DNA of 46,140 nt. Origin: an uncultured Clostridia bacterium. Its GTDB lineage: Bacteria > Bacillota > Clostridia > Christensenellales > UBA1242. The DNA lies in assembly GCA_944372675.1 (NCBI GenBank), contig CALVZW010000002.1:1-46140 (forward strand), in the 5' to 3' direction. Under the pieces are notes generated by a model. That model was given only the letters and a program-made list of their open reading frames with translations. It was not told the DNA's origin and ran no database searches. Positions 1,480-36,298 of the stretch are shown here, piece by piece (within the stretch, counting starts at the first letter, position 1; every line of letters starts with the position of its first letter). Both the position numbers and the translations under genes were made by a program.

Positions 1480-2553
1480 ATGAAAGCAACAAAAGTACTA
1501 TTAACAGGTGATAGGCCAACAGGCAATTTACATATAGGACATTACATTGGCTCATTGCGTCAAAGAGTGGAAATGCAAAACAGCGGAAACTATGAGCCTT
1601 ACATTTTAATTGCAGATGCACAAGCACTAACCGATAATGCCGACAATCCTGAAAAGGTAAGAACAAATATTATTGAAGTTTGTTTAGATTATTTAGGAGT
1701 AGGAATTGACCCAACAAAATCAACTATTGGCATACAATCTCACATTTACCCCCTTACTGAATTGACTTTTTATTATATGAATTTAGTAACATTAGCAAGA
1801 TTACAACGAAATCCCACAGTTAAAGCGGAAATGAAACAAAAAAATTATGGTGCTAATGTTCCTGTTGGCTTTTTGACATATCCAATAAGTCAAGCAGCCG
1901 ATATTACTGCATTTAATGCACAAGTTGTTCCTGTTGGCGAAGACCAACTGCCTGTTATTGAACAAACTTGCGAAATTGTCAACTCATTTAATAGAATATA
2001 TGGGGAAACACTTGTAACACCTAAAGCAATTTTAGATAGCAACACTGCGTGTCGTAGATTAGTCGGATTAGACGGAAATGCAAAAATGAGTAAATCATTA
2101 GGCAATACAATAAATTTAAAAGACGAACCCGATGTAATAAAACAAAAAGTTATGAGTATGTACACTGACCCTAACCATATTCGCATTGAAGATGCAGGTA
2201 AAGTTGAAGGTAATACAGTTTTTGCTTACTTAGATGCTTTTTCAACCGATTTACAAATTGAAGCATTAAGCGAATACAAAACTTTAGACGAAATGAAAGA
2301 ACATTATCGCAAAGGTGGTCTAGGCGATGTCAAAATAAAGAAAATTTTAAATGAAATTTTGCAAACAACTTTAACACCAATAAGAGAAAGACGAAAACAA
2401 TTTGAAAATGACAAATCTTATGTTATGGAAATTTTAAAACAAGGTAGCGATAAAATGTTGCAAATTGCTTTAAACACTTTAAACAGAGTAAAAACAAATA
2501 TGGGTATAAATTACTTTAATGATAATTCATTTTTTGAAAACTATTTAAAATAA
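1480..2553 (+). CDS. trpS: Tryptophan--tRNA ligase (class I).
   Basis: N-terminal GDRPTGNLHIGHY carries the HIGH motif and KMSKSLGN carries KMSKS. The 357-aa length and overall pattern are typical of bacterial TrpRS. Confidence 0.92.
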   Translation: MKATKVLLTGDRPTGNLHIGHYIGSLRQRVEMQNSGNYEPYILIADAQALTDNADNPEKVRTNIIEVCLDYLGVGIDPTKSTIGIQSHIYPLTELTFYYMNLVTLARLQRNPTVKAEMKQKNYGANVPVGFLTYPISQAADITAFNAQVVPVGEDQLPVIEQTCEIVNSFNRIYGETLVTPKAILDSNTACRRLVGLDGNAKMSKSLGNTINLKDEPDVIKQKVMSMYTDPNHIRIEDAGKVEGNTVFAYLDAFSTDLQIEALSEYKTLDEMKEHYRKGGLGDVKIKKILNEILQTTLTPIRERRKQFENDKSYVMEILKQGSDKMLQIALNTLNRVKTNMGINYFNDNSFFENYLK

Positions 2554-2578
2554 AGCAAATTCGATTTTGCTTTTTTTA
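2553..2578 (+). terminator. Intrinsic terminator of trpS.
   Basis: Stem AAGCAAA (2553-2559) pairs with TTTGCTT (2566-2572) and is followed by a T-run. It overlaps the TAA stop. Confidence 0.7.
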
Positions 2579-2580
2579 TT

Positions 2581-3548
2581 TACTTTTAATTAATTAAAAT
2601 TATATCGTAAAAATATGTATAAGTGAATTTTAAAACACTTTTTATTTAAAACATATTAAGAATTATTACTATTACAAAAAAATTTATATATTGTTTAAAT
2701 GCAAAAACTTACAATAATTTTATTTTAACATATAAATTATAATTAATTTCCAAAATTTTAATATGTTATTTTTTTAATATGTTATTTAAAACATATTAAT
2801 TTTTTTGCACATAAATCACAATATAAATTTTAATATATGCAAAATTTTGAATTTAAATAAAATAAAATTTAATACGATTAAAATATTATTTTTTACAATT
2901 TTTTATTTTTATACATAAATTTTATTATCAAATTAATATTTTAAAATACTATAATTTAATAAAAATTTATTTAAAAAAGTAATATCGTATTGTCTTTAAT
3001 TTTACAAGATAGGATTAAATTATAACAATAAAGAATTTTTGTGTGTTAAAAAAATCTAACTCATATACTAAAATTAAATAAATTAATATTATTTATAATG
3101 CTTACACCCTACCTTTTCTATACTTTTGAATTTAATAAATACAAATAAAAAAGATAAATATACAAATAAACAAATAACATAGAATATGTAAAGTTTATTA
3201 AATAAATACTCAAATTTTTAAGATAAAAACTTTAAAACTTACATAGTTTATAAAAAAAACTACTATGATTTAAAGAATACAAATTTTTTTAATTTTAATT
3301 AATATGGTAAATTCGTGAAATATAAGTATTTCTTACTTCAATATATTTCTGCTAAAAGAAAATAAAATTAAATTTTGATTAATTTTTTTAATTAATGAAC
3401 AAGTTGCTAAAAATATCTTTACAATAAATTAATTATTATAAAAAATTTAATTTACAGTATATCATACAATAAATTAAAATAAAAATAATTATTATATTAA
3501 ATTTTTAAGTTAAATAAGTTTTGTTATAAATAAAAATTATAAATATAC
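2581..3548. other. Extremely AT-rich, ORF-free spacer of about 1 kb.
   Basis: No ORF of 60 aa or more in any frame in the track. It contains an exact 18-nt repeat, TTATTTAAAACATATTAA, at 2642-2659 and 2782-2799. The second copy lies within a 10-bp inverted repeat, TTAATATGTT/AACATATTAA, at about 2775-2800. Confidence 0.6.
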
Positions 3549-3575
3549 AAAAAAAAACACCCTGATGGGTGTTTT
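3549..3575 (-). terminator. Strong intrinsic terminator oriented for the minus strand, weaker on the plus strand.
   Basis: GC-containing stem ACACCC (3557-3562) pairs with GGGTGT (3567-3572) around the loop TGAT. On the minus strand a run of 9 U follows (complement of the A-run at 3549-3557). On the plus strand only TTTT follows. Confidence 0.7.
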
Positions 3576-3764
3576 CTCGCCTTGTGCGTTTATTAATATT
3601 AATATTTCATTAATGTCATTCAATAGTTTTAACAAAACATTAAAACTCAATTCACTTCAACAATTCCATATCAATTTAACAAACAGACGAATACAATTAA
3701 CCACAAAATTGAACTTTTGCAATTAAATGTATGGTCTAGGTTAAATTGCCTATCAATGCTTATT

Positions 3765-4926
3765 GCATCAAATAATGGAATAAATTTGATGCTGTAATGT
3801 ACTAAGCAATACATCACTGAATTTAACATCTACAGTTAGATGTATTCAAGTTAAAATCTAGAATAAAGATTAACATTTTTTAACACTTAGTCTTGTGTAA
3901 CTATTTTAAATTCTTAGTCTTGAACCTATTTTTTACTTCTTTCGTTTGAAGACTATTTTTTATTTCTTTTGTATGAAAATCATTTTTCAGTTCTTAGATG
4001 TGAACACAAATACAATCTATTTGCAAGATACCATCTTTTATTTCTTAGGCTCGAAAACTTAATTTTAATTCATAAGTTAGAATACAATTTTTAACTCTTT
4101 GTATGAGTATGGTTTGAAACTCTACCACCTGAGTTGCAATTTTACTCTTATGCTTGAGTGCAATTTTATTCTCTTTGCTTGAGTTTTAGATTTTTACTTC
4201 TTCTAATTGAACAACAAATTTTAGTTCTATATTGTGAACTCTTGTTTTTTACTTCTTAAGAATGAAGACTATTTTTTATTTCTTTCGTATGAAAATCATT
4301 TTTCAGTTCTTAGATTTGAACACAAATACAATCTATTTGCAAGATACCATCTTTTACTTCTTAGGCACGAACACTTAGTTTTACTTCCTAAGTTAGAACA
4401 CACTTTTTAACTCTATGTATGAGCACCGTTTTTAATTCTCGGTGAGAATACCATTTTTATTTCTTGGCTTGAAATCTAATTTAATGCCCTAGCAGGCACT
4501 CATTTAAACTTTGAGTAAGCAATAAGTAATCCACTTATTAAAGAGATTTGACTTCTTTTCTGAATATGCCTTGACGCAAGCACTACGCCCTAATAAAGTT
4601 TAGGAAAACTTGCATTTTTTCAATTCTTATGCGTGAATACTGAATTAGTCTACAGTTTGACACCTTGTTTGAAGCCTTAGGTTAACTGCAAAATTTTATA
4701 GTCTGTGCTTGACTACTTATATGAAGTTATAAGCCGACTACCTAATTTGGTCTAGGTCAACCATCCTAACAAGTTTAGGACCACTACTCACCTTTAAGTC
4801 TGAGCAAGACTACCCACTTAAAGACCAGGCGGGACTTCTCTATTAAGCTAGAGATACTACTATGAGGACTCTCACAGTTCAAGAGTAAATTTTAAATCTT
4901 CACCTCGATTTTGTTGCTTTCGCAAC
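3765..4926 (-). ncRNA. Candidate large non-coding RNA or tuf 3' tail made of about 40 tandem short stem-loops. Strand is inferred and the family is unknown.
   Basis: One hairpin recurs about every 23-32 nt with the plus-strand unit T-run, A, N, YTC, 7-8 nt loop, GAR, N', AC. By eye I count 14 TTC-N8-GAA, 6 CTC-Nx-GAG and 3 GTC-N7/8-GAC, plus longer stems at 3765-3792 (9 bp), 3826-3843 (7 bp), 4435-4449 (6 bp) and 4837-4854 (6 bp). Stem bases change in pairs between units. There is no ORF. The minus-strand assignment rests on co-orientation with tuf, the terminator at 3549-3575, and the GNRA (GAAA) loop that the hairpin at 4913-4926 has only on the minus strand. Confidence 0.4.
3929..4423. repeat. 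Segmental direct duplication inside the hairpin array: copy A 3929-4107, copy B 4245-4423, offset 316 nt.
   Basis: My by-eye alignment gives 179 nt per copy with no indels and about 15 mismatches. Each copy spans about 8 hairpin units, including the CAAATA-CAATC-TATTTG and AAGAT-ACC-ATCTT hairpins. Confidence 0.85.
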
Positions 4927-5007
4927 TAAGTTAGGTTTTTAGTTTGTTTTAAAAATTTTCATAATCAAATTTTAGAAAACTTTGCAGGGTTAAGTCTAAA
5001 ACTTAAA

Positions 5008-6210
5008 TTATTTAATAATTTTTGCAACAACACCAGAACCTACTGTGCTACCGCCTTCACGGATAGCGAAACGCAATCCTTCTTCGATAGCGATTGGTGT
5101 AATCAAGCGAACAGTCATAGAAATGTTGTCGCCTGGCATTACCATTTCAACGCCTTCAGGTAATTCAATTGTACCTGTTACGTCTGTTGTTCTGAAGTAG
5201 AATTGTGGACGATAACCATTGAAGAATGGTGTGTGTCTTCCGCCTTCTTCTTTCTTCAAAATGTAAACTTCTGCTGTGAATTCTGTGTGTGGTGTAATTG
5301 ATTTTTGTGCAGCAATTACTTGACCTCTTTCGATGTCTTTCTTTTCAATGCCTCTCAATAACAATCCAACATTATCACCTGCTTCAGCTTCATCCATCAT
5401 CTTGTGGAACATTTCAATTCCTGTGATGGTTGTTGTTCTAGGTTCACGGATGCCGACAATTTCAACAACATCCCCCATCTTTACAGTTCCTCTTTCTACT
5501 CTACCAGTTGCAACTGTACCACGACCTGTGATCGTAAATACATCTTCCACTGGAAGCAAGAAAGGCTTATCTGTTGCACGAACTGGGTCAGGTACATAAG
5601 TATCCAACGCATTCATCAATTCGTCAATGCACTTGAGGTCTGGTGAATCTGTTTGACCAGCATCTGCTGCTTGAAGTGCTTTCAATGCAGAACCTTTAAT
5701 AATTGGAGTTGTATCTCCTGGGAAACCGTACTTATTTAATAAGTCTCTAATTTCCATTTCGACTAAGTCAATTAACTCAGGGTCATCAACTTGGTCAGTT
5801 TTGTTCATAAATACCACGATGTATGGAACGCCAACTTGTCTAGCAAGAAGAATGTGTTCCATTGTTTGTGGCATTGGACCATCAGATGCTGCAACGACGA
5901 GGATAGCTGCGTCCATTTGTGCAGCACCGGTAATCATGTTCTTGACATAGTCCTTGTGTCCCGGACAGTCTACGTGAGCATAGTGACGAGTCGCTGTTGA
6001 ATATTCTTGGTGAGATGTATTAATTGTAATACCTCTCGCTCTTTCCTCTGGCGCAGCATCAATATCAGCATAGTTTCTTGCTTGTGCAAGACCTAACAAT
6101 GCTTGTCTTTTTGTAATTGCTGCAGTCAAAGTAGTCTTACCATGGTCAACGTGACCGATAGTACCAACATTCAAGTTTACTTTGTCTTTAACAAACTTTT
6201 GTTTTGCCAT
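5008..6210 (-). CDS. tuf: Elongation factor Tu.
   Basis: [15 protein letters not shown] and NKTD GTPase motifs. Full-length at 400 aa with the typical EF-Tu sequence throughout. Confidence 0.98.
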
Positions 6211-6447
6211 TTTGTTCTCCTTTATAAAGTTCGATAGCGCTATTTACTTAATCGGCATAGTATCTTTACTATTTTAAATAATCTCCAAGTGTCGCGATCA
6301 CTCTTAAATTAGTTAAAATTGCTTGTTATCTAACCTAATTTACATTCATAAAACTCGCGAATTTTAATCCTATAAATCAAGTAAAACAACTATGCGGGTA
6401 AAGATTCATTACCAACTAAAATTGTAATGGATGCTATCCCAGTATTA

Positions 6448-6476
6448 AGTATAGCGAAATTTTGATTTAATGTCAA
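6448..6476 (-). promoter_or_regulatory. Dedicated sigma-A promoter for tuf.
   Basis: On the minus strand: TTGACA (6476-6471), a 17-nt spacer, then TATACT (6453-6448). This implies a leader of about 230 nt before the tuf ATG at 6210. Confidence 0.6.
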
Positions 6477-6668
6477 ATGTTTTATGCATAATTTTCTTAT
6501 TTTTTATAATTACTTAAAACCGAATTATTTTTTTTGTTTGTTGTGTTTTATTACTATAATTACTTTTTAATTATTAAAACATTTTTTAGCTTTTAATAAG
6601 TTTAATAATTTTTAAGAAAAGTTGCTTTGCTTTAGCGCCATTTGACAAATCACCAAAGCAAAATTTAA

Positions 6669-10408: not shown

Positions 10409-13400
10409 TTAACTAATTATGTTATATCCATTGAAGATACCATCACGACCACCAGTAAATCCTAAGCCATAGTTAGATGTATCGTCAATTGCGGATGTAT
10501 AACCTTGTTTATTAATGTTTTTATAGACTGTAAAGTTTCTTATGTAAGTTTGGCTATAACCAACAATACAACCTGCGTGAATTGTTCTACTGCCGTTATC
10601 AGCACTAACATTAATACTTGTATAAACATCACAACTATCAAAGTAATATGCTAAATCCATTTCACCATATCCTAAGAAACCACCAACATAAGTTTCATTT
10701 ACCGTATCATTGTTGTAAATATTTATTACATTTACAGTTCCAGATGAAGCAAAATTACTATCTTTAACCGCACAATTACTAATTGTTCCTTTTCCACCTG
10801 CTGTACGATAACCTACAAATCCACCTACATTACGATAAACTGAACTATAGATACTTGCTCCGCTAGCATTTGCACGAATTGTTAAATTTTCAACATAACA
10901 ATCTTTGTTACTTTCAGATGCACCTTTAATACTTCCTGCTTTCATATTTCCAACATACCCACCTAGATTAATATATTGTGAAGCACTTGTAGTGTTACCC
11001 AATCTAAAATCAATTCCTTGTATGTTAGTTGAAGTAATAGTACCGCTATTAATACCAACAAGTCCACCTATTGATAATGGCGATTGCACTGCCCCTGAAG
11101 AAACTGTACATTCTTCATAAATTACAGTTGCGTTAATCACGCTTACACTTGAAATTTTACCATTGTTCGTACCAACAACTGCACCAACACCAGCACCGCC
11201 ACTTGTTCCACCTGTAAAGTTGGAATCAAACTCAATGATAGGATTACTAAATTTAATGTTTTGTAAACTACCGTTTGACGAGATAGTGTTAATAAATCCG
11301 TAGTTAGAATCGGTGATTACAGTGTTCATATTATAAATTGTCATATTAGCACCGTGCAATGTACCATTAAGTACATTAATGAAATTGTTTGCAATATTTG
11401 TGCTAACGGTGTTTGTAAAGCAATAAATATCGTTTATTAAACTATATACAAATGTTTTATCGCTAGAAACATCATATAAGTAGTTAATTAACTCAAATCC
11501 GCTTTGGTTTGTAATTTGGTAAGGTAGCGAACTTGTACCATTACCCTTGTTATCAATTTGTGGAACAGTGTTATTTGCATATTTTAAATATGGATAACCG
11601 TAGTTAATTAATTCAACCCTTGAACTATTTTCCTTATTTGCGTAATCACTTGCAAATGAGCCCCAAACATTTGAATCAAAGTACCCAAGTCCTCCGTTAT
11701 TTAAAATGTCGCTTAATGTTATGTTATTTATTGTTTGATTTTCTGTATTTTTATTTGAATAAACTAATGTACCAAAATAGTCATTGTAAACAAATTCAAT
11801 ACTAACATCATCAAGTATATCATTCATAACATCGCCACCATAAACTGCGCCATATGCCGTAACATTTGCTGAGTTTAGATAGTTAATTCTTCCATAAACA
11901 TAACTTTCACGCAAGTTACCGCTTTGAAGATATCCGACTAAACCACCAACTAAACTTGCATTTGAACCTGTTACTTGACATAGTGTCAATGTTCCGCTTG
12001 CAAAACTATTTGTAATTTGTGCAAATATCTTATCATCCACACTATTACTGTGTCCTGCTATTCCGCCAACATTTATTAGTTGAGCAACTGCAGTATCACT
12101 TTGTTCTATTGAAACATTGCTTGAACTAAAACCAATATAACCAAAGTTTGCTCCAGCAATTCCGCCAATATTTGTCATATTGGCAGTTGAGCCCGCAACT
12201 GTTGAACTATTAAATGAAATTAAACCGTTAGTAGAAACATAAGATATTGTACCGTAGTTTGTATTTGCAACTACACCAAAATTACCTGATTGCGACAATG
12301 TTATTGCAACATTTTGTTGATTTTCATTTTGCGACAATTGTAAATTAATGTTATTGACAATCGCCGTTTCTGTTAAATTATTAAATAATGGTTTACTCAA
12401 GTTTTCAATAATAAATCCTGAGCCGTCAAACACACCTGCAAAGTTTTCGCGTGTTTGTGAATTTGTTACTCGAATGTTTTTAGTTAAAACATAGTACTCA
12501 TTTAATCCATTACTTGGTGATTGACAGAATTCAAGTAAATCTTCTTCATTTGTAATTAGATTTGGCTTGTAAACTGTACCATCATTTGTCTTAATGCCCA
12601 TACCACTCTTTCTTGCCCAATCAAGCAAAGGCAAAGTGTTTGTTTCATTAGCCCAAGTACTGCGTCCGTTAAATAAGTTTTGACTAATTAATTCATAGTA
12701 AGAAATTGCTTTTGCAGTTGCATCGTGCATTACAGGAACTTGCGTATCAATGTATGGAGCATTGGTTTGAGCAAAGCCTAAAACATAATAGCAGTTATTG
12801 AAAACTTTGTTACTTAATGGTGTACTACCAATGAAACTATGACTATTTGTTAAATTGCTAATAGTATCTCCATATACTCTAACTACACAAGCAGTGTATG
12901 AATAGTTAATAGATGGCTCAATGTTTACCATTTCAAGTCTACCTATTAAACCGCCAACACTTAAACCAATTTTTGAGTTAGTTGGTGGATTTATCAACTT
13001 CGTTTTGCTTACTAACTCACCAACACTATAGCAATCAGAAATACTTATTCTGCTAGCATATCCTACAAGACCGCCAATATATTCAATATTACTACTTGTA
13101 TATTTTTGCCCGTTAATATCCGTGTTTGTAACACCAACTACAGTAATATTACCGTCGCTATAACTTGATGAAACTGAAATATTTGCAGTATTGTTTGCTG
13201 AATTTAGTGAAGCACGACCAAGTACACCACCAATATTTAACGCATAAACACCATTTGTATTAATATTTGCTGTGTTGCGAGATTCCGCAATACTTGCTTG
13301 AATTGTACCCAATTCAGCATAACCAACAACCCCACCAATATAAGCAGTTGTGTTTTTAGTAGTTTGAACATCTACATTAATTTGTGCGTTATTTGTTCCT

Positions 13401-16400
13401 GTTACTTGCGAATTACCTTGTATTTCTCCAACAAGTCCGCCTAAGTAAATACTATTTGCACTAGCATCACTTGTTTGATTTGCACTTACTACATTGAGTA
13501 TACAATTATTTAACAATGAAGTCATAGTTGCTGATGCGCCTAAACCAACAATACCACCAACTGTAAATTGCTTTTTATATGTTGAATTCATTTGCAATTC
13601 AGCATTTGACACATTATTAGTTGCAACACTAATAATTGTTAATGAGTTTGCGTACCCAACAATACCACCAAATTTAATTTCGGTAAAATCATTTGTATAA
13701 TTTGTGTAAACAATTGAAACAGGTTTTAATGCGCTACCATAAGGGGCACTTTCTTCAGTTGAAGATAAAACTTTAACTTCACTTGTTCCAACATTTTGTA
13801 TTCTAGAAGCATTTGCATAGCCAGAAATCAATCCAACTACGCCGTTAGATGTTGTAACTTTAAATTGTTGATAAGCATTCTCGTTTTTGTAACTAATATA
13901 ACTAATGTTGTAATTAACATCTGCTATACCTGTTCCATCCATATAGCCTATAACTCCACCCACATAACTTGTTACTGCTGATAATGAATTAGCATAGTTT
14001 TGTAGTGAAACATTCATAGGTATTGAGCAGGTAATACTTGAGAAGTTACCGCCACTAGCATAACCAACAACTCCACCAATATAGTTACTTGGTATGTTAT
14101 CACCACCTTCAATAGTTAAACTACGATTGTAAGTAATGTTAATACCTTGAGTTGAAGTTACATCTAATGCCTTGTTAGTAACATTTATTTTAGTTAAATA
14201 AGAGCCTTCAATTCTGTTTGCAACTACCCCATAATAATAGTTGTCTTTAAGGTAAATATCGTCATTATTGTTAACAATATCGCCACCATCAAAAGTGTTG
14301 ATAACATTAAATGTCAAATTAGATATTGTTGCATTTCTACCAAAGTTAATAAATGGGTTTGCAATATTAATAATTGGTTGTCGAGTTGTGTTACCATCAA
14401 CAATGTCTTCACCTAAGAATTTTCCGCTAAATGGTATTGCTTGACTTCCTAAACTTTCCCAATTACCCTTTAAATGCCCATATAAATCGCCATAATTTAC
14501 AGTTTGACTATATAAGTTAATATCACATCTAATTATGTAAGTAGCATTTGGTGCTTCGGCTAACAACTCAAGCAAATTATTACGGTTTTCTTCAGTAATA
14601 ATAATTTCAGATGCTTGTGTTGTTATGTTTAGCAATGGGAAAACGCTTGTTTCAATTGTCCAATCTTCAGAACTGTAGTTACTAAATATTGTACTTCTGT
14701 TTTGATATAAAGTATTGTAACTAGCACTACCAAATGTTTCATCATTCTTTGTGCTAAACCAACCATAAGTTGTTTCTACATCATCTTCAACTAACTTAAA
14801 CAAGTTAAGATTTGCAAATTGTATTAGATATTCGCTTTCTTCAGTTGTCATTTTATCATATTCTGACGAACCAAAGTATTCTAAGTTCAATGTAGTTGTA
14901 CCCGCAGTATTTAATGGCAATTTGTAAATAGCATAGTTTGTATTATTTGAACCCACATATTCAAAAATTTGTGAAATTTTTGTAGCATTTACAAAACCTG
15001 CCAAAGCACCTGCTGTAACACTTTTATTATTGATTAATTGCGCAGTTGCAATGGTAAAGTTATTAGCAAGCACAATGTTAGTAAATTCAGAAATCGTCTT
15101 GTAAGTAATTTCACCATTTTCATCAACTACTGTATATTTATCCATATAACCAATCATACCACCAAATGCAACACTTGATTGTACATTTCCGGTTGTATAA
15201 ATTGAATTATAACTTCCGCCTTTTGAATACCCTATAACACCACCAGCATATTTAGCGCTTGCGTTTACAACATTAATTCTAGAATATGAATCTTCTATAT
15301 TACCATCAATGTTAGAGCCAACTAAACCGCCAATGTAATTGCTAGGACCTATGAACAAGTCAGTTTTACCACCTGCAATGCCTTGTGTCAAAGCATCAAC
15401 AGCATTTAGGTCATCGCCTTCATAACTTATTCTTGCTTTTTCAATACTGCTGTAATTTACACCAACTATTCCGCCAACAGCATCATCGCCCGATAGTTCT
15501 TGTCCTTTAGTTTGACTAGCATTTATGCTAACTACAAAATTTAAGTCATACAAATCGCCATAGTTGACACCAACTACACCGCCTGTTCTTTCAGCACCTA
15601 TTGAAACTTTGCCGTGAACTTTTAATGTTCTGATTGTTTGATTATCCCCTTCATTTGAAATAACTGCACCAATTATACCACCTGCATAGGAAGTATTACC
15701 AAACATAAGTTTAATTGTAGTTTGCGATGTTTTTAACATTACTTCGCCAGTTCCAGCGGTATCAGTGCTACCCACAATGTAGTTAAGGTCTGTATATGAA
15801 GATGCGTTTTCGCCTTTTCTAAATGTGGCTCTAACACCAATATTACTTGAAACTGATTGAATTTCACTTCCACCAACTACAACACCAACTAAACCACCAG
15901 CAATGTTTTTACCTTGTACGAAACTACCTTCCGACTCAACCGTTATGCCTAACAACACCGAGTCAATAGCCGTACCAGCCAATGCTCCAACAATAGGAAT
16001 TTCTGTTGCTGATACTGAATTGAATTGCAATCTTAAATTCTTAATTACTGCCCCTTCCAATCTTTCAAACAAACCAAATTCGATTTGATTTGCATCAGCA
16101 CTTCTTTCACCTGTAACAGTTATGTTGTTTAATAACATATTATTACCTTCCAGTACTGCACTAAATATTACTTTACTTGAATTAAGTCCTGTAACAGTTT
16201 CCGAAGTTTGAGCAAAATTAAGGTCATTAACTATTCTAACATATTTTGTTGTAAGACTTTCGCCCTCAACTGTATCATCAAGATTTACAATGTTTGTACC
16301 AAATCTTTCAAGTAATCTTCCGTTTTCCGTCATTAAATTGTTAAATTTAACTGCGGTATTTATTATGTAAGGGTTAATTTCTGAGCCCAATTCATAGCCT

Positions 16401-19400
16401 ATCATATAAGCATAAACTTTAGGTTCGTTCATTGTTTCTTCCTGACTTGTAGCGTCAAGGAAGTTAGATAATTCTCTTTGTGAAACTGCAATTTGATTTG
16501 CCGAATTTAAGTAAGGCAAAGTGTACCCATCTAAAGTCCAAATACCGTAATCTTTTAACTTTGTATTGTTTACAAAAGCAAATCCCACATATTCGCTTAT
16601 TTGCGATTGATTTTCCTTGTTAATTGCAATTGCAGGTTCATCGGCAAATACTACTGTTGAATTTTCTTTAATGTAATATGAATAATTAATTTGCCCTTCA
16701 TTTTGAATTTCGTTAAAGTCATTTACACCAGTAAATGGTCTAAATGAAGCATTATCGTCGGTAACTCCGTCCGCTAATAATACAATACAATTTGTATAAC
16801 AATATTCAATAATTGCGCCGTCTCCATTACTATTAACAAAGCCTGCTGAATTACTTGGACTTCTTATTACAAACGAAGCATAACTATTATTAATTGTTCC
16901 GTCATTGTTAAGTACAAATCCAGCAACACTTCCTTGCGATTTCAAGTTTGCATAATCATCACCTTCAATGGCTCTACCCTCAGCATAACTACCGCTAATT
17001 GAACCACCATTTAATGCAACAAAACCTGATGTTGAACTTACACTTGCAATAACCGCATTGTTATTAATTGTAACATTTTTTACATAACTTGAACTAATGC
17101 TGTTTGTATTCATAGCAACAAAGCCAGCAACTATGCCGTTTGCAGTTAAATCAATGTTACCACCAACCCAGTAGTTACCCAATCCTGAACCCATTATTCC
17201 TGTTGGTCTTGACCCAATACTATCCGTATTTCGTCCAACTCTTGAATGTGTTATGTATCCAGAGTTTTGTCCAACAAACAAGCCAATGTAATTGTTTGTA
17301 TAAGTTGAATTAATAATAAGACTTGTTTCAATTATCATTGTTGAATTGTTAGGATTTCCTGTTATGGTAGTTTCATTTCCGCTAGTTGTTCCCATTTCAA
17401 CAATGTTTACAACATCGCAGTTTGTAATTGTACCAGCATTTGTACCCGCAAAAAATCCAAAGTTAACTTGACTAATATTTTTTAAATTTAAAGTATTGTT
17501 TAAAAATCCATTAACATTTAAAACTACATTTTTAATTAAAGTTGAAGATGAAACTGTTGCAAATAACCCTACATTTAATGTACTTTGTTGAGTATCTAGT
17601 ATTAAATTATTTAAGTTAATTACAAAACCGTTACCATCTAATGAAGCAAAATTTGCATCCATAGGTGTGTAGTTATCAAGTGTAATATCTCGCATCAAAA
17701 TGTAATGCGCCCCTGCTTCCATTGCTTCAAATTCTGCTTGCGAGTAAATTGGTAATGGCACTTCTTCAGTTGTGGTGTTATTGACATTTACATAACAAGT
17801 CATTGTTTTATCAATAATCACTTTGTTAGTTGTTGGGTCAGTAGCCTTGTTGATAAGTATTGGTTGATACAATCCATCAACAAAATCGTAATAATATGAT
17901 ACATTCAAAGTTATTACATCTGCTGTACTAACTCGTATTCCATAAACTGAATAGTACCCGCCCTTTAAACTGTAGTTGTAACTGTAATAATTTGTTGACC
18001 CGCTTAAACTATCAAATGACTGAGTACCTGTGTACCAAACTGGAACATCACCAGCACTTACATCGTGTTGTCTAGAAATTAACAATTCAAATTCTTCAAT
18101 TTTATTCTTAATTTCTTCGCTAGATTGTGAATAAACTGCAATTATTTTTGCTCTTAAAGTTGTTGCATAGTTTAAATCGATATCAAGAATGTTAGTATTA
18201 TTCTGTGTTCTATATCCATCAATAGCAACACCCGTTATTATGTAGTCAACCACTGTTAAAGTAATTTCATCTGTTACAACAATGCGGACATTGTCAACTA
18301 TTGTATCAAGTTGAACTCTAATTTTAAACTGTGTTCCTGCAATTAAATTAATATTAGTTGTGAGTTGTGCAGTTATACTTCCACTATATTTATTAGCAAA
18401 TTGAGTTTGATTTGCATTGAAAACTACATAAGTTGGGTCAATTTCGCCATCAACTGATAAAGTTAAGTTTCCAGCCATTGTGTTTACATTGATTGGGAAA
18501 TTCAATGTTGTTCCACGAGCAACTTGTCCGTTGTAATTTTCGTTATAGTTTATTGTTACACTTGGACTAAATTGTGTATATAGTGTTTTTGTTTGTCTAA
18601 ATACTTCTTGCCCATCTTTATAGGCTACTATATTTAATACAAATGGTAAATTTTCTGGCATATTTGATTTAATTAATGTTGATACATACAAATTGCCATC
18701 AAATTTATATCCTTCATAATCTTTGTATGATGCTAAACTTAATTTAATTCCGTTTTCTATAATTTCAGCATCTGGATAAATTCTTTCTAACTGACCATTG
18801 TTATATACTTTTTGTAAGAAAGAAATATTCTCACCATTAACTGGTGCACAGGTTAAATGTAGATAATCAATTTGGCTAAAACTTGGATAAACATTTATTT
18901 TTAATAGTCCCTCAATTCCACTTGATATCTTATCAGTTGCCACTTCGTCTTCACGAAGGTCTCCGTCTGCAAAGTGTAAAACTGATATTCTTTCAACCGT
19001 TTGCGGTATTACAATTAATTCAAAGTTTTTAGTAAATTTATCGCTTAAATTAAACTCAACATCAAATATTTTTTCTTCTTTAATGTTTTGTAGCATTGTT
19101 GTAGGTTCAAATTCAAATGTCATTAGTAGTTCATTTGACTGTTCATTGAATACAAATTCAATTAAGTCTAAGTTAAACATTGCATTATTTGAATTACTTG
19201 TTCTTTCAACAACAATATTATCCAAATTAGGCTCAAAGCCTTCTAAAATTGATATGCTAAATGAATCAATAACTGTTTCATCACTTTTAATTTCAACATT
19301 ACTAATTATTTCAGTGTTTAAATCGGTTGTAATTATTGTAGTTACTTGTGCTTTTTGACTTGGTGTAATATTTGATTGATTTTTATCTAATTCAAGGTTG

Positions 19401-22400
19401 GTTGCCCCGTTAAATATTGTTAAATTAAAACTTTTTTCTGTCCAAGGCAATAACACTTTTACTATTTCACCGTCAAAATTTGCATTAATATAAGCAATTT
19501 CATAAATAACAGCATTTTCGATTACTTGATTTGCCGTTATATTTTTTGCAAAGTTGTAATCAACAAATGAATAATCCACATTTTCAATTTGTTCGTTTTC
19601 ACTGTAATCAAATGAAGCATAAGTATATAACTCTTTATATGCTATACCAAATTTTTCACCAACTATATTTTGACCGTTTTCAAATGTGTATCGAATTTCT
19701 TTTGATGTATTTAAGAGCATTTCCATTGTTCCATCAGTGTTATCACTAAATGAATTTAACCCATTTGTTACATACAATTCTAAATAATCATACACATCTT
19801 CGTTTAATTGTGAAGATATTTTTATTTTACAATAGCCTTCACCAATAACAATTAAGTTCCCGCCGTCAATTTTAACTACATCAAGCCCGCTTTCAATAGT
19901 TGCTTTAACTCTTACTATTCTATTTGTCAAAGGTGAAACTTCAAGACTAATTAAATCGTTTAACGAAATTGAATAATCACTAGCATTATCTGCTTTTGAT
20001 TTTTGACTAAATAATACTGCTCGATTATCGTTTATTTTTATATGGCTATTATCTACACTTTCATTAACAATCACTTTTAAACTTGTTGGTGCAACTGTAA
20101 TAAATTCGCTATCACCATAAATTAAATATGGATATCCTTGATTTACATTTGATGACATCCTAAATGTTGCAAGGAAGTCCCAACCAACAAAAGTTATTTC
20201 GTTTTGTAATTCAGCACTTGTTTTGCCTACTGCAACATTTACTGATGAAGTTTCAGATAAGTAATAAGAACTTGTAGCAAGTGTTGCCGATTGACTTTGC
20301 CCTACGAACGAATCTAAGTTACTTACTGAATAAGTGTTTGTTATTGTGCAACCATTACCTAAGTATCCAATAAATCCACCTAAAACTGTTGTGTTACTAT
20401 CATCTAACAAATATAAATCGGTTATTGAATAACTATTTTGAATATTTACACTTTCCGCCTTACCAATTAAACCACCAGCATATTTGCTATCATCGTTTAG
20501 TGCACTTGAAACGCCAATTTTTGTACTAGCCTGACTGCGTGCAACTATTGCACCACTCGTAGCATAACCAATAAGTCCACCAACATTTGAACTACCTACA
20601 ACTGCATACAAGTTTTCGCTAGTTATGAACGAAGTTGAAGAACCATAGTTTAATTTTCCACCCTGCATCAAACCAATTAATCCGCCAACATTACTTGAAC
20701 CATTGACAAAAGATGAACCGTCTTGATAACTTTCAAATATTGCAACTGAAACTTGCCCAGAGTTTGTCCCTACAACACCACCGACATTATCTCCACCAGT
20801 AACCGCACTTCTTGAAAAGACATCACTAACTTCCGCTAAGTTATTTCCAACAACTCCACCGACATTTTGACTCTTAACATCACTTTCATTTGTGCTACTA
20901 ACTGTTGCATAAGCCGATACTTTTTGTACTTGTCCATAGTTAATTCCAACTATGCCACCTACCGCCATATTATTAATGTTTTGTGCAACACCAACATTTA
21001 TGTTAAACAACAAGTCATTATCTTGTCCGTTAAATGAGAATACAAATTCGTTATCTTCTCCAACAATATCGTTAGCAAACGCATAATTGCCAATAATTGT
21101 GTTATTTTCATTTAATATACCAACAAATCCGCCAATGTAACTTTCGCTTGATATGTTATTTATGTTAATAACTCCTCCACCAATCATCTTACTGCTATCA
21201 ATTACACTAGATATTGCTGTTTGCTCAGTTTGCCCATTTTGATTAACAAATTCATAAGTATTAGTGCTAACAACCGAAGCAAATCCACCAAAATTAATTT
21301 TTGCTTGTGAATTGTTGTTTATGTAAGCACTATTTCGCATTACTATTTGGACATTTTCAATTGTTCCTTGTAGTTTTGCAGTTAAAAACCCTAAATTAAA
21401 TGTTGTGTTTGTATTGTAATCACCTACAATGTTTATGTTATATTCGCTAAATTCAATAACTAAATTGCTAAAACTTGGTATTGAATCAATTGGCGAAACA
21501 TCCGTATTTATTGAACCTTTTACAACACCAAACATCGCATAATTTATTTCACCGCTAACATTTTCAAATGTTTGATTTAACTTAACACCTATTATTTTTG
21601 AATCAACATAAACGCCTTCAGGATTATCCTCAGTTGGTTTAACTACATAATATCTACCATTTATTGAGCCAGTAAAAGGTGTTTCTTCACTTCCTAATGC
21701 ACTCAATTTTACATTAGACAAATCTATGCTTTGCACAATTACATAATGTGCATTTAACCCTGTTGAAATGTTTAAATAGTCTACTGCACTTGAAATTTGG
21801 TAAGGATTTTCAAGTGTTCCATCGGCAACATCAATCACAATTTCTTTATATCTTAATTGACTGCCTTCTGCTTGTAACCTTTGCAAATTCATCAACAATT
21901 CATTCATAGATAATGTGCCATCATTATCATTGTCATAATAAGATAGTTGATCGCGTGGAACAATAACCACTTTTGCTGAACCTGCTTTGAGTGGAGTTAC
22001 AACACCATCTTGTGAAACTTTGATAATTTCACTTGTAGGAGTTGATGTTGAAATTGTGTTATTTTCTAAATAATCGTAAGCAAAATAATAAACTCCGCCG
22101 TTAACTGCAGTGGCTGGTAATGTTGAAATTTTAATTTGTTGAGTGTTAGTTGTATCTTCGCCAGTACCTAAACCAGTTTTAAAGTACATATTGTAATATG
22201 TTTTACCATCAACAACTTGGCTATTTGTGTTGTAAACAACTATTTCATTAACCATTGTTGCTTTGTTAATAGTAACATTACAAATACTTCTATATTCTCT
22301 ATCAAATTCCTTTATTTCCGCAACAATACCTACCGTTGCTGTTGATAAATTGTTACCAATTTTACCAACAAATTTACCTTGTCCTTGTCCATAATAGAAC

Positions 22401-24682: not shown

Positions 24683-24774
24683 AAGTACTCCATATTTTTC
24701 TTTTGTAGTTTATGCATTTTTGCATTTTTTACAAAAAAATATATATATTTTTTTTAAATTTTATTTTACAACAA

Positions 24775-24804
24775 ATTGTATCAAAAATAGACACATAAAG
24801 TCAA
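24775..24804 (-). promoter_or_regulatory. Candidate promoter of the giant lipoprotein gene.
   Basis: On the minus strand: TTGACT (24804-24799), an 18-nt spacer ending in TGA, then TACAAT (24780-24775). The leader would be about 85 nt. Confidence 0.5.
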
Positions 24805-24979
24805 ATACTTTAGTTAACAAAAGACAATTTTTAAGTATTTTTTGCAAAAGAAAATATACAAAATTAAATATCCTTTGTTTGTGAATAATTAGTATGTAAA
24901 TAATTTACTTTTTATACTTTAAAAAAAATTAAAATAATAAATTAAATTAATAAATACTATAAATTTATAATTGTTAAAT

Positions 24980-25021
24980 AAAAAAACAAAGTAAAATTAA
25001 ATTGTTTAACCTTACTTTGTT
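24980..25021 (-). terminator. Intrinsic terminator downstream of the spoIIID-like gene.
   Basis: A 10-bp stem, AACAAAGTAA (24985-24994) with TTACTTTGTT (25012-25021). On the minus strand a U-run follows (complement of the A-run at 24980-24986). Confidence 0.6.
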
Positions 25022-25027
25022 TTAATT

Positions 25028-25303
25028 TTAACTATTTACACACTTTTTACAACTTTTTTTAATTTCAAATTTATGTTTGGTGGCTTGCCCACCTTTAATG
25101 TGTTTTTCTTCAAAATGTTCTTGTAATATGCTTTGTACTTTTAAGTGCAAATTTTTATCTATTTTAGGGAGTCTAAATTTTAAATCATTATGAACAGTAC
25201 TTTTTGATATTTTAAATTTTTTTGCAGTTTGCCTTATAGTATGCTTTGTCAAAATAATATATTCTGCTTCTTTTATTGTTCTTAATTCGATACTCGACAT
25301 CAC
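25028..25303 (-). CDS. spoIIID: SpoIIID-type helix-turn-helix transcriptional regulator (stage III sporulation protein D family).
   Basis: The 91-aa protein matches my recollection of B. subtilis SpoIIID along its whole length: ..ERTIK...YI...K.T.R..AK.F..SKSTVH.DL..RLP.I...L...V..IL..H......RGG.ATK.K. A strong RBS (GGGAGGGTG) is present. Confidence 0.85.
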   Translation of the reverse strand: MMSSIELRTIKEAEYIILTKHTIRQTAKKFKISKSTVHNDLKFRLPKIDKNLHLKVQSILQEHFEEKHIKGGQATKHKFEIKKSCKKCVNS

Positions 25304-25523
25304 ACCCTCCCTTGTTATAATATGTCGTACAATGTCGAATTAGAAGTGTTTAAAATATTTTTTTGTCAATGCTAAACTTATTTTGTCAATGTTGTTACTT
25401 TTAATTAAATAAAAATGATATTTTGTTTTAAATTCATTTAATAACTATAAAAAAAAATCATTAATAAAAAATTATAAATTTTTACAAACTTCTTTTTGTC
25501 TTTATCAAAAATTGTTATAAATA

Positions 25524-25550
25524 AAAAAAAAGTATGCTAAGCATACTTAA
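25524..25550 (-). terminator. Intrinsic terminator of acpP.
   Basis: Perfect palindromic stem AAGTATGC-TAA-GCATACTT (about 25530-25548). On the minus strand a long U-run follows (complement of the A-run at about 25522-25530). Confidence 0.7.
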
Positions 25551-25553
25551 AAA

Positions 25554-25781
25554 TTAATTTTTATGTGATTCTATATATTTACATACATCATCTATTGTTT
25601 TAAGATTTTTTGCATCTTCATCACTTATTGTAATACCAAATTCATCTTCAAGTGTCATAAGTAATTCAACAAAATCAAGTGAATCAGCATTTAAATCTTC
25701 CAAAAGACGACTTTCTGGTGTAATCTTATCTTTGCTAATATTTAATTGCTTAGCAAGTATGTCTTGCAATTGTGCGAACAT
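25554..25781 (-). CDS. acpP: Acyl carrier protein.
   Basis: 75 aa with the LNADSLDFVELLMTLEDEFGI motif (phosphopantetheine Ser in DSL). A GGAGG RBS is present. Confidence 0.93.
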   Translation of the reverse strand: MFAQLQDILAKQLNISKDKITPESRLLEDLNADSLDFVELLMTLEDEFGITISDEDAKNLKTIDDVCKYIESHKN

Positions 25782-25814
25782 TTGTATTCCTCCTTACAAA
25801 ATTTATTAAGAAAA

Positions 25815-25842
25815 AGTATATCATACTCTTTTAAAATTGCAA
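25815..25842 (-). promoter_or_regulatory. Candidate promoter of acpP.
   Basis: On the minus strand: TTGCAA (25842-25837), a 16-nt spacer ending in TGA (extended -10), then TATACT (25820-25815). Confidence 0.5.
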
Positions 25843-25975
25843 ACTATTTTTAAATAAATTGTATAATTTTCGTCAAAATGTACAATTTTTGACACTATAT
25901 TACATACATTTTTATTTTGCTAGTTTATTTAAATTTAACATTGCAAAAATTTATATTATTTGTGGTTATTTTAAT

Positions 25976-26200
25976 TTATGCTAGTTGTTTTAATTTAGTT
26001 AAAATATCATTTAACCTTTTTAAAGCATCTTCCGCTTTCTTTTCAATTTCCGCTTTTAAAGGGTCATCGGCAGTAAAATAGTCTTCCTTTAATTCCGCAA
26101 TAAAGTCATTTAACTTTCGTCTTTCGGCTTGCAAATGCTCAAGTGCTTTTGTTTGAGCAATCAACAACTGTAATTTACTATCATCATTGCTTTTTGTCAT
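25976..26200 (-). CDS. Small hypothetical protein predicted to form a coiled coil, 74 aa.
   Basis: Heptad-like charged sequence (LQLLIAQTKALEHLQAERRKLNDFIAELKED...KRLNDILTKLKQLA). Its ATG overlaps the TGA stop of the upstream LRR gene (ATGA at 26197-26200), which suggests translational coupling. Confidence 0.55.
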   Translation of the reverse strand: MTKSNDDSKLQLLIAQTKALEHLQAERRKLNDFIAELKEDYFTADDPLKAEIEKKAEDALKRLNDILTKLKQLA

Positions 26201-29409: not shown

Positions 29410-29426
29410 AAGGCTCACCGCTAAAT

Positions 29427-29455
29427 AGTATAACATATTATTTACATTTTGTCAA
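29427..29455 (-). promoter_or_regulatory. Sigma-A promoter of the LRR-protein operon.
   Basis: On the minus strand: TTGACA (29455-29450), a 17-nt spacer, then TATACT (29432-29427). The GGTGAG RBS (29419-29414) and the ATG at 29409 follow. Confidence 0.6.
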
Positions 29456-35566: not shown

Positions 35567-36259
35567 TTAATTATTATCAGAATAATTGATATGAATACCA
35601 GGTCCCATTGAACTAGCAATAGTAACACTCTTTAAATATGTTCCTTTAGCCGCTGCTGGTTTTGCTTTAATGATAGCATCCATTAATGTTGTCAAGTTTT
35701 CTTTTAGTTTTTCAACTCCAAAACTTGCTTTTCCAATTGGACAGTGAATATTTTCATTTTTATCAAGTCTATATTCAACTTTACCTGCTTTTACATCAGC
35801 AATTGCTTTAGTAACATCCATTGTTACTGTGCCACTCTTAGGATTTGGCATAAGTCCCTTAGGACCGAGAATTTTAGCAATTCTACTAATTGAACTCATC
35901 ATATCAGGTGTTGTAATACATACATCAAAATCTAACCAACCTTGATTTTGTATTTTTGCGATGTATTCATCTGCTCCAACATAATCTGCTCCTGCTTTTT
36001 CTGCTTCTTCAGCCTTTTCGCCTTTTGCTAAAACAAGAACCTTTACACTTTTACCTGTTCCATTTGGCAAAACTACTACACCACGAACTTGTTGGTCAGC
36101 ATTTTTGCTGTCAACACCAAGTCTTACATGTAATTCAATAGTTTCATCAAATTTTGCACTTGCAGTTTTTACTGCTAAGTCAAGTGCTTCATCAACAGTG
36201 TAAAATTTACCCTTTTCGATAAGTTTTAATGCTTCTGAATATCTCTTACCAAATTTCAT
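35567..36259 (-). CDS. rplA: 50S ribosomal protein L1.
   Basis: 230 aa, typical L1 sequence ([14 protein letters not shown]...[14 protein letters not shown]...V.V.A.G). Confidence 0.97.
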
Positions 36260-36298
36260 TTTTTCCTCCTTGTGGTATTAACGAACATTGTTCTTCCA

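Follow-up and report, generated by a model that had tools for sequence, protein, structure and literature searches.

The question raised by the 46,140-nucleotide (nt) window analysed here, a stretch of contig CALVZW010000002.1 of an uncultured Clostridia bacterium with a G+C content of about 30%, is what occupies the 1.46 kb that follow tuf, the gene for EF-Tu. The minus strand carries the str operon, rpsL-rpsG-fusA-tuf (9751-5008), and the element in question (3549-5007, minus strand) begins behind the last stop codon of that operon. The longest open reading frame (ORF) inside the element has 58 amino acids (aa), and none of at least 60 aa is found within 2554-5007, as the preliminary description of this DNA had stated for the region downstream of tuf. 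That description proposed a tandem array of stem-loops. The tandem arrangement and its covariation stand, but the units are not simple stem-loops: they are predicted to be H-type pseudoknots, and 3549-5007 very probably specifies a pseudoknot-array RNA on the tuf strand.

Hairpins are far more numerous in the element than expected from dinucleotide shuffles of 3549-5007, as had been claimed. The pattern TTC-N7/8-GAA occurs 16 times (1.25 +/- 1.13 expected), CTC..GAG five times (0.25 expected) and GTC..GAC three times (0.13 expected), while hairpins of 4 base pairs (bp) number 108 (49.8 +/- 8.3 expected, z = 7) and those of 5 bp number 49 (15 expected). The AT-rich spacer 2554-3548, taken as a control, has no hairpin excess (z ~0). 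The former figure of about 40 stem-loops was somewhat high; 30 NUC-N7-9-GAN hairpins were counted at a spacing of 23-29 nt, and repeat finders report degenerate tandem units of 24-28 nt. A full 4-bp first helix (S1) is present in 22 units of the window, and about eight more are unit-like hairpins (Table 1).

The unit is about 27 nt long. It begins with the 5′ strand of S1 (S1a, R-U-U-C), passes through A-A, the 5′ strand of a second helix (S2a, R-Y-N-N) and another A-A to the 3′ strand of S1 (S1b, G-A-A-Y), and is completed by an A-rich loop 3 (U-A-A-A-A-A-N) and the 3′ strand of the second helix (S2b, N-N-R-Y), after which S1a of the next unit follows immediately. When 197 units were picked by the loop consensus alone (A-A-R-Y-N-N-A-A), S1 pair 3 was canonical in 196 of them (about 136 expected) and pair 4 in 160 (about 97 expected), with all four Watson-Crick types present at both. 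In an alignment of 142 distinct units drawn from this set, 82 double-change cells were counted, against 18.3 +/- 3.6 after shuffling, and none of 500 shuffles gave as many; the earlier observation that stem identities change in pairs was therefore sound. The accompanying statement that the loops vary freely was not, because A is conserved at loop positions 1, 2, 7 and 8, and the bases at positions 3-6 have pairing partners downstream.

This downstream pairing is seen when mutual information is calculated for every pair of columns across 157 units: loop position 4 and downstream base 12 score 0.42, position 5 and base 11 score 0.46, and position 6 and base 10 score 0.39 (99th percentile of the null, 0.086). 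In an unbiased set of 156 hairpins, for which a 4-bp S1 and an 8-nt loop were the only criteria, pairing along the antiparallel diagonal between loop 3/base 13 and loop 6/base 10 is 62-73%, compared with 20-50% elsewhere, and all four pairs of this helix (S2) are present together in 63 hairpins, compared with at most 16 for any other register. S2 cells are 70.1% paired (48.5 +/- 1.5 in shuffles), double-change cells number 196 (68 +/- 8.6 in shuffles, 0/500 as high), and the covariation score is 0.603 as against 0.241. Controls in which the register was slid and relatedness kept are 35-42% paired. With a flexible register, S2 of at least 4 bp forms in 176 of 250 units, compared with 74.7 +/- 6.4 when the flank is shuffled. 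Across 82 pairs of adjacent units, the pairing of loop positions 3-6 with the 4 nt that immediately precede the next S1 has frequencies of 0.88, 0.93, 0.88 and 0.68, and all four pairs are formed in 45 cases (9.2 +/- 2.5 after permutation). The relatives from which many of these units come constitute a family of about ten distinct sequences in two clades, A and B, at loci with labels such as L005, L013 and L018. In clade B the S2 pairing survives inserted hairpins (GCCC with GGGU, for example), and in the unit at 3981-4005 loop position 3 and downstream base 13 are A-U in the window and G-C in L004.

Since loop positions 3-6 find their partners in the 5′ flank of the following unit, and since S1 and S2 each covary as the two helices of such a fold, each unit is interpreted as an H-type pseudoknot. 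It follows from the S2 pairing that the conserved “UGGY” before each hairpin is the S2b of the previous unit, and that the A-runs formerly read as spacers are loop 3; consecutive knots are predicted to abut with no linker. The first loop (L1) has 2 nt and loop 3 has 5-8 nt, 70-85% of them A, and by analogy with described structures it is sterically plausible that these lengths let both helices form together (PMC11625349). An A-rich loop 3 in the minor groove of helix 1 is the topology of the smallest known H-type pseudoknots (PMC11625349). A mutual-information scan over paralogous repeat units can expose tertiary pairings that a hairpin-centred reading overlooks.

The tuf strand, to which the RNA had already been assigned, is favoured by several features. 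The variable S1 pairs of the 197 units include 14 G.U and no A.C, although 36 A.C would be expected from the make-up of the columns. Several helices of the 3′ domain carry invariant G.U pairs, and some can form on the minus strand only. The minimum free energies are 17-18 kcal/mol lower on the minus strand than on the plus strand (-159 vs -141 and -165 vs -148 kcal/mol). Finally, the sole terminator-like site from the tuf stop codon to 3549 is on the minus strand at 3578-3551, where 12 pairs are followed by 9 U in the manner of an intrinsic terminator, close to the position (3549-3575) where one had been claimed. A functional transcript on the plus strand, antisense to tuf, is highly improbable. 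It is true that Watson-Crick covariation is symmetric between the strands, that plus-strand folds are also better than shuffles (z = -3.8 and -2.6) and that on the plus strand UUUUCUC comes after the terminator hairpin of clade A; but the asymmetry of G.U and A.C, the helices that pair on one strand only, the weaker plus-strand folding energies and the one-directional terminators of clade B oppose it. Such an RNA would also collide head-on with tuf, and a consensus scan found no conserved plus-strand promoter, in keeping with the former failure to see a good one.

The same observations bear on the notion that the element acts as DNA, either as a minisatellite or as an iteron-like or centromere-like set of palindromic protein-binding sites, with no function as RNA. 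The units are tandem and degenerate, each is a short inverted repeat of about one helical turn, and they are gained and lost in indels, all of which would suit a DNA feature. However, pairing is kept through sequence change at two separate helices, the tolerance of G.U but not of A.C is specific to one strand and therefore to RNA, and S2 joins a loop to a flank, which would be senseless at binding sites in duplex DNA. Covariation is also present in the flanking domains, which are not repetitive, the terminator marks the exact limit of conservation, and the cumulative GC skew gives no origin at the element. A purely DNA-level role is accordingly scarcely credible.

Because no terminator separates the two, while outgroups terminate tuf within about 80 nt, the RNA is most likely a 3′ extension of the tuf mRNA; the absence of an intrinsic terminator directly after tuf had been noted before and is borne out by the single site at 3578-3551. 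The RNA would thus be made by read-through from tuf, as an extension of a very abundant mRNA, and might later be released by cleavage at the conserved 5′ hairpin. A strong promoter-like sequence in the fusA-tuf spacer (6476-6448) is likely to be the start of the tuf transcript that carries it. A promoter of its own within the 5′ hairpin (TAGACT-18-TAAAAT, 4998-4969) was considered and set aside, being weak and not conserved in clade B.

The array is framed by two conserved domains. In the 5′ hairpin, 12 of 13 sequences share the loop CUUAACCCUGCAAAGUUU unchanged, and the stem covaries (UAGA/UCUA, CGGA/UCCG), with G.U wobbles on the minus strand only. The hairpin at 4913-4926 likewise covaries, but the GNRA character that the preliminary description saw in its GAAA loop is not kept in relatives. 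For the 3′ domain, the last ~320 nt, RNAalifold predicts 73 pairs from nine sequences, 24 of them with compensatory double changes, and a local RNAalifold consensus of five clade A sequences has 312 predicted pairs, 59 with compensatory changes. Two of the longer helices noted before, 3765-3792 and 3826-3843, are real and conserved. In L005 the stem GCAUCAAAU/AUUUGAUGC is wholly replaced by GUUGUUGACU/AGUCGGCAAC, a version that can pair completely (two G.U included) on the tuf strand alone. The terminator is kept in clade A; clade B retains the hairpin ACCCAUCAGGGU and adds a second G+C-rich hairpin with U8, a terminator that works in one direction only. The sequence ACCCUG in the invariant 5′ loop (4977-4994) is complementary to CAGGGU in the invariant 3′ hairpin or terminator (3553-3566), a match that could reflect pairing of the two ends of the RNA or an effect on termination. 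Covariation cannot test this pairing because both sequences are invariant, and L018 also lacks the 5′ element.

The distribution of the family is narrow. Contigs with TrpRS homologues of 76-83% identity have trpS, an AT-rich spacer, a terminator, a gene-free region of 1.6-2.1 kb and tuf in succession. One exact-pattern scan of GTDB species genomes for the 3′-domain motif found nine species-level metagenome-assembled genomes (MAGs), named as uncultured Clostridia, Lachnospiraceae or Eubacteriales. The preliminary description had asked what lies downstream of tuf in relatives: in every in-group locus recovered, the element is directly downstream of tuf and before the terminator, whereas it is absent from the nearest outgroup loci. 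EF-Tu of this lineage forms a tight group of at least 90% identity, the next relatives being at most 81% identical; outgroups at 81% have an ordinary intrinsic terminator no more than ~80 nt past the tuf stop codon and the next gene within 200-225 nt. In in-group loci reached by way of EF-Tu, a tail of ~1.95 kb is followed by His_Phos_1 and TruA in place of trpS. The gene beyond the element therefore differs between loci, and the element travels with tuf.

Identity to clade A relatives is 78-85% in the 3′ domain, 71-82% in the 5′ part and 69-79% in the array, compared with 76-78% for the DNA of trpS. Taken as a whole, the RNA is 70-85% identical within clade A, a level of conservation equal to that of trpS DNA. 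Beyond the terminator nothing is alignable with clade A relatives; since the spacer 2554-3548 cannot be aligned, conservation ends exactly there. The size ranges from 1.19 kb (L018) to 2.16 kb (L013), with 20-43 unit hairpins per relative. Copies that are 99.4% identical differ by an indel of 54 nt (2 x 27), and more distant copies by indels of 135 and 78 nt; to judge from such comparisons, it is whole units that the array gains and loses. When the window was searched with a covariance model of the unit (R1), 13 matches had E < 0.05, every one of them between 3929 and 4718 on the minus strand; a further 157 kb of loci from relatives and outgroups yielded 50 matches, every one inside a tuf tail and none in an outgroup. 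REP elements and bacterial interspersed mosaic elements (BIMEs), dispersed palindromes of which REP are scattered genome-wide, were rejected as an identity, the unit model matching only the tuf tail in these 46 kb and 157 kb. A metagenome scan with the invariant 19-mer ATAAGCATTGATAGGCAAT gave one true extra copy, a duplicate of a known MAG contig, and five chance matches; the family is rare outside gut MAG collections. A two-unit pattern had at least 119 chance matches in viral contigs, where none of the eight loci with at least two matches was matched by the unit model, and BLAST against phage and plasmid collections gave no match.

No known RNA accounts for the element, as first suspected. 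Rfam 15 (with OLE, GOLLD, ROOL, raiA, HEARO, tmRNA, 6S, CsrB, preQ1 and others) has no gathering-score match in the 46-kb window, a permissive scan (E <= 10) gives only four chance-level matches in 3300-5100, and ARAGORN finds no tmRNA or tRNA-like gene at the element. Literature searches found no prior description and no tandem pseudoknots in bacteria. On these comparisons it appears to be a new class of large bacterial RNA. OLE, GOLLD, ROOL and raiA are likewise large, conserved, structured non-coding RNAs of Bacillota found by comparative genomics, but they are non-repetitive multi-junction folds of 200-800 nt, unlike the modular, repetitive RNAs of 1.2-2.2 kb and variable copy number described here. 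Transfer-messenger RNA (tmRNA) also has consecutive pseudoknots (PK2-PK4) in a translation-linked bacterial RNA, but only three or four, mutually dissimilar and part of a tRNA/mRNA hybrid. CsrB and RsmZ resemble the element as non-coding RNAs of many repeated small units that could bind many copies of one partner. The CsrB analogy drawn in the preliminary description nevertheless fails at the level of the motif: CsrB/RsmZ units are GGA-loop hairpins, while the loops here (A-A-R-Y-N-N-A-A) are base-paired and have no GGA. CsrB is 350-400 nt long and independently transcribed, and to our knowledge nothing links the tuf-tail RNA to CsrA.

Three other readings of the units were also rejected. Mimicry of the T-loop and T-arm (GUUCAAGCC) is ruled out because UUC sits in a covarying stem. 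Loops serving as codons for tRNA anticodons are contradicted by loop positions 5-7, which are mostly CUA, and by the pairing of positions 3-6 with the flank. Tandem mini-ORFs (AUG GUA UUC AAG CCU AAG AAU UAA) would need start codons, and no more than 80 of the 250 units have AUG close by; there are hardly any Shine-Dalgarno-like motifs, and the period is not divisible by 3.

Tandem short structured repeats in one transcript are also found in ToxI, TIGR and CRISPR arrays and in REP-derived naRNA4, and the element might be a precursor cut into unit-length RNAs of ~27 nt that work, like those of ToxI, TIGR or CRISPR, with a protein encoded elsewhere. The regular period of 25-28 nt, the A-rich junctions, the terminator at the end and the shift of copy number by whole units are as one would expect of such a precursor, and TIGR-related “tandem stem-loop arrays” provide a precedent (PMC12045711). 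However, box C motifs are found in no member and CUGA is rare, and the 46-kb window has no toxin, Tas (Nop-domain) or cas gene, either beside the element or elsewhere. The minus strand has no ORF after the terminator. The units are diverged and interlocked instead of near-identical, there are no hypervariable spacers, and orthologous loops are conserved across species and covary with their partners. Moreover, each unit is joined to its neighbour by S2, so that a cut between units would abolish the fold. Such processing is quite unlikely. As to the individual systems, a ToxI-like antitoxin array was rejected on the divergence of the units and for want of a minus-strand ORF of at least 40 aa in 2554-3548; a TIGR-Tas array on the period of 25-28 nt, on the absence of RUGAUGA from all 10 members scanned and on the absence of a Nop domain from window ORFs of at least 100 aa; and a CRISPR array because there is no repeat-spacer alternation and no cas gene, the only CRISPR-DR match being at chance level (E = 4.5). 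The proteins neighbouring the element are TrpRS, from trpS, and an unknown 144-aa protein on the far side.

Small pseudoknots of similar build are known singly. PreQ1-I aptamers and luteovirus frameshift pseudoknots are ~28-34 nt long, the units here being 27 nt. They have the same order of S1, short L1, S2 and an A-rich loop across the S1 minor groove (PMC11625349). Each known example, however, occurs singly, in a 5′ leader or a coding region, and has a defined ligand or the ribosome as its target. The units of the element are instead chained, S2b abutting the next S1a, and match no Rfam preQ1 model. The element could still be an array of aptamers in which each preQ1-I-like mini-pseudoknot binds a small molecule or ion at the S1/S2 junction, so that the RNA buffers or senses its ligand; the shared topology, near-equal size, A-rich loop 3 and conserved unpaired junction bases would agree with this. 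It is very unlikely, given that neither preQ1 nor any other riboswitch model matches even at E <= 10, that the RNA is a 3′ tail and not a 5′ leader, and that no metabolic gene is linked. We also know of no natural aptamer array of more than three copies.

The nearest architectural likeness is in plant viruses. The 3′ untranslated region (UTR) of tobamoviruses and hordeiviruses, exemplified by the upstream pseudoknot domain of tobacco mosaic virus (TMV), also places consecutive small head-to-tail pseudoknots in the tail of an mRNA. This is a likeness of architecture only and not homology, there being no sequence relationship, and the viral stalks differ in having 3-6 pseudoknots (20-40 here), in being eukaryotic and viral, and in having a tRNA-like structure behind them. 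Binding of eEF1A, the homologue of EF-Tu in eukaryotes, has been reported for the TMV domain (Zeenko et al. 2002, as cited in PMC8518580), and EF-Tu is on that account a testable candidate partner.

What the RNA does may be considered in this light. Many near-identical compact pseudoknots would offer one shape to a trans-acting partner, which the array would titrate, store or scaffold; an abundant translation protein would be the most plausible partner, with EF-Tu as a candidate. This multivalent platform is preferred because selection acts on the fold and on unpaired adenines and not on helix sequence, because the copy number is very high and variable in an extremely abundant transcript, and because the elaborate, invariant end domains exceed the needs of a nuclease barrier. 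As a whole, a tuf-tail pseudoknot array acting as a multivalent platform is the best explanation and falls only slightly short of probable; the multivalent-binding mechanism itself can be proposed tentatively, and EF-Tu as the partner, suggested by analogy, is doubtful. Equally speculative is a more specific form, in which a quasi-continuous rod of ~30 coaxially stacked mini-pseudoknots docks EF-Tu or another translation GTPase and couples the level or state of EF-Tu to its own mRNA; that such a rod would be a bacterial counterpart of the interaction of the tobamovirus stalk with eEF1A is a long shot.

Alternatively, the chain may need no partner in trans and act in cis as the 3′ UTR of tuf, a mechanical obstacle and nuclease block to 3′-to-5′ exonucleases, RNase J and Rho that stabilises or insulates the mRNA. 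The RNA is always attached to tuf with no terminator between, selection is on the fold and not on helix sequence, and a C-poor, highly structured sequence would be a poor substrate for Rho. Pseudoknots with minor-groove triplexes, such as frameshift stimulators and exonuclease-resistant RNAs (xrRNAs), resist unwinding, which also favours a barrier. Yet a single terminator hairpin suffices in the outgroups, 1.2-2.2 kb with 20-43 units is far beyond what protection requires, and the invariant 18-nt 5′ loop and ornate conserved 3′ domain are left unexplained. A role in cis alone is rather unlikely.

Several observations weigh against the pseudoknot array as a multivalent platform. About 30% of units have no convincing S2 in the simple register, S1 is only four pairs, mostly A-U and U-A, and S2 only 4-6, and the stability of a single unit may depend on tertiary contacts or Mg2+. 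L018, the most divergent member, is without the otherwise invariant 5′ hairpin. The unit was not found in mRNA leaders or elsewhere across the ~200 kb sampled, and because it is confined to tuf tails there, no regulon is apparent for a sponge to relieve. No candidate RNA-binding protein is encoded nearby among the window proteins, and titration of EF-Tu by an RNA seems implausible given the abundance of that protein.

If this reading of the element holds, it would represent a new architectural class in bacterial RNA biology: 1.2-2.2 kb built of serial repeats of one of the smallest stable folds, with neighbouring units interlocked through shared strands and a copy number that evolves by whole units. 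The RNA should be very abundant in this uncultured, widespread human-gut Clostridia lineage because it is attached to a top-expressed gene. It would be a natural test bed for the co-transcriptional folding, stacking, and nuclease and helicase resistance of tandem pseudoknots, a ready-made multivalent RNA scaffold for engineering, and a concrete case for asking whether large functional RNAs ride on bacterial 3′ UTRs.

Table 1. Features of the element and of the adjoining tuf region, in the order of transcription; helices are given as 5′ strand/3′ strand.
Feature	Coordinates	Strand	Remarks
Promoter-like TTGACA-17-TATACT in fusA-tuf spacer	6448-6476	-	consensus scan, 11/12 matches
tuf (EF-Tu, 400 aa)	5008-6210	-	Pfam GTP_EFTU, D2, D3 domains; candidate RNA starts right after stop codon
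5′ hairpin, 7-bp covarying stem, 18-nt loop CUUAACCCUGCAAAGUUU (4977-4994)	4970-5001	-	starts six bases past tuf stop
Hairpin GUUGC-GAAA-GCAAC	4913-4926	-	stem covaries with GUCGC/GCGAC in L015; GNRA loop not conserved
5′ third of RNA, higher G+C	4475-4910	-	A3 alignment, local consensus fold, unit lists; pseudoknot units with AUC/GAU and GUC/GAC stems, other conserved hairpins
Pseudoknot unit, S1 AAUC/GAUU, S2 GGUGA/UUACU	4884-4910	-	
Two unit-like hairpins	4870-4886, 4647-4662	-	only three canonical S1 pairs
Pseudoknot unit, S1 AGUC/GACU, S2 UGCUC/GAGUA	4785-4811	-	
Unit, S1 AGUC/GACU	4684-4714	-	S2 weak, 3 bp
Invariant block GCAGUUAACCUAAGGCUUCAAACAAGGUGUC	4659-4689	-	A3 alignment
Pseudoknot unit, S1 AUUC/GAAU, S2 GCAU/AUGC	4612-4638	-	
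Pseudoknot unit, S1 UUUC/GAAA, S2 GCCA/UGGU	4450-4474	-	
Pseudoknot unit, S1 AUUC/GAAU, S2 CACCG/CGGUG	4424-4449	-	
Segmental duplication copy 2	4245-4439	-	89% identity to 3929-4123
Pseudoknot unit, S1 GCUC/GAGU, S2 UACAU/GUGUG	4399-4424	-	
Six unit-like hairpins	4384-4399, 4357-4372, 4330-4346, 4197-4212, 4170-4184, 4014-4030	-	only three canonical S1 pairs
Pseudoknot unit, S1 GUUC/GAAC, S2 AAUC/GAUU	4294-4321	-	
Unit, S1 UUUC/GAAA	4264-4294	-	S2 weak
Pseudoknot unit, S1 CUUC/GAAG, S2 UUCUU/AAGAG	4239-4267	-	
Pseudoknot unit, S1 GUUC/GAAC, S2 CAAUA/UGUUG	4212-4239	-	
Unit, S1 ACUC/GAGU, S2 GCA/UGC	4136-4159	-	short period, 24-25 nt
Pseudoknot unit, S1 ACUC/GAGU, S2 GUGGU/ACCAU	4109-4134	-	
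Segmental duplication copy 1, 195 nt, in array	3929-4123	-	89% identity to 4245-4439
Pseudoknot unit, S1 ACUC/GAGU, S2 UACAA/UUGUA	4083-4108	-	
Pseudoknot unit, S1 AUUC/GAAU, S2 AACUUA/UAAGUU	4056-4083	-	S2 of 6 bp
Unit, S1 UUUC/GAAA, S2 GCC/GGU	4030-4056	-	
Unit, S1 GUUC/GAAC, S2 AUC/GAU	3981-4005	-	compensated change in L004 orthologue
Unit, S1 UUUC/GAAA	3954-3978	-	S2 weak
Unit, S1 CUUC/GAAG	3923-3951	-	S2 weak; top match to unit covariance model
Pseudoknot unit, S1 GUUC/GAAU, S2 GACUA/UAGUU	3899-3925	-	
First pseudoknot of conserved 3′ domain, S1 AAUC/GAUU, S2 UAUUC/GAAUA	3843-3871	-	
Conserved pseudoknot, hairpin ACAUCUA/UAGAUGU	3816-3843	-	loop ACUG pairs with CAGU downstream
11-bp helix AGUGAUGUAUU-GCUU-AGUACAUUAC	3793-3819	-	invariant G.U pairs; alignment pairs 75-85/90-100
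Hairpin GCAUCAAAU...AUUUGAUGC	3765-3792	-	conserved loop UUAUUCCAUU
Nearly invariant core AUAAGCAUUGAUAGGCAAUNNAACCUAGACC	3733-3763	-	small hairpin UAGG/CCUA inside
Long covarying hairpin around GAAAGUUCAAUUU	3693-3730	-	alignment pairs 163-204, many compensatory changes
3′ linker, long-range covarying helix	3579-3692	-	alignment pairs 205-217/306-323 and 251-273
Conserved GAGUUUUAAUGUUUUGUUAAAACU in 3′ linker	3625-3648	-	
Intrinsic terminator GAGAAAACACCC-AUCA-GGGUGUUUUUUUUU	3549-3578	-	core ACCCAUCAGGGU invariant in family

The surroundings of the element have peculiarities of their own. No tRNA and no Rfam family at gathering score was found in the 46-kb window, and its Rfam scan gave neither a T-box in front of trpS (1480) or of a ThrRS-like gene (42017-43753) nor a ribosomal-protein leader in the vicinity of rpsL or of rplK-rplA (36724-35567); in this lineage, such leaders are either divergent or missing. 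The fusA-tuf spacer (6211-6668) is unusually long at 458 nt, and the promoter-like sequence within it would give tuf a leader of ~240 nt. The spacer is 82% identical to that of L015 over 305 nt and is ~890 nt long in L025-L029, and it may contain a further regulatory RNA or leader.

On the other side of the element, a gene-free spacer of 1 kb with 19% G+C (2554-3548) extends from the terminator of the RNA to trpS (1480-2553, plus strand), the closest named relatives of which are in Lachnospiraceae and other Clostridia at ~66% identity. Between trpS and the RNA in clade B (L005 at 5240-5520, also L006 and L007) are degenerate direct repeats of ~14-30 nt (for example GCTAAATATGGCG and TTGCTAAATGT), which are unrelated to the pseudoknot units.

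The usual gene order upstream of rpsL is broken, since rplJ, rplL, rpoB and rpoC are not in the window, and nusG-rplK-rplA (35567-37347) is ~26 kb away from rpsL (9751). The interval contains a giant ORF, a BspA-type leucine-rich repeat protein (26197-29436), sugar-nucleotide transferases, an ABC-F ATPase and small unknown ORFs. A region of about 1.5 kb upstream of the giant ORF (24683-26196), with ~22% G+C, has no ORF of at least 100 aa and no match to the unit model. The giant ORF itself (10409-24682, minus strand), directly upstream of rpsL, encodes 4757 aa with no Pfam family. Its product, in which N, S, T and G are frequent, has a lipoprotein-type signal at the N-terminus (MNKLLWFCLLMITATGFLFSAC) and numerous GG.VG (GLUG-like) repeats. 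The signal and the surface-protein character of the repeats led to its rejection as a repeat-reading RNA binder. L026 and L027 have ORFs of 4699 and 4706 aa at the same position, and the ORF is probably a giant surface protein at the usual place of rpoB and rpoC.

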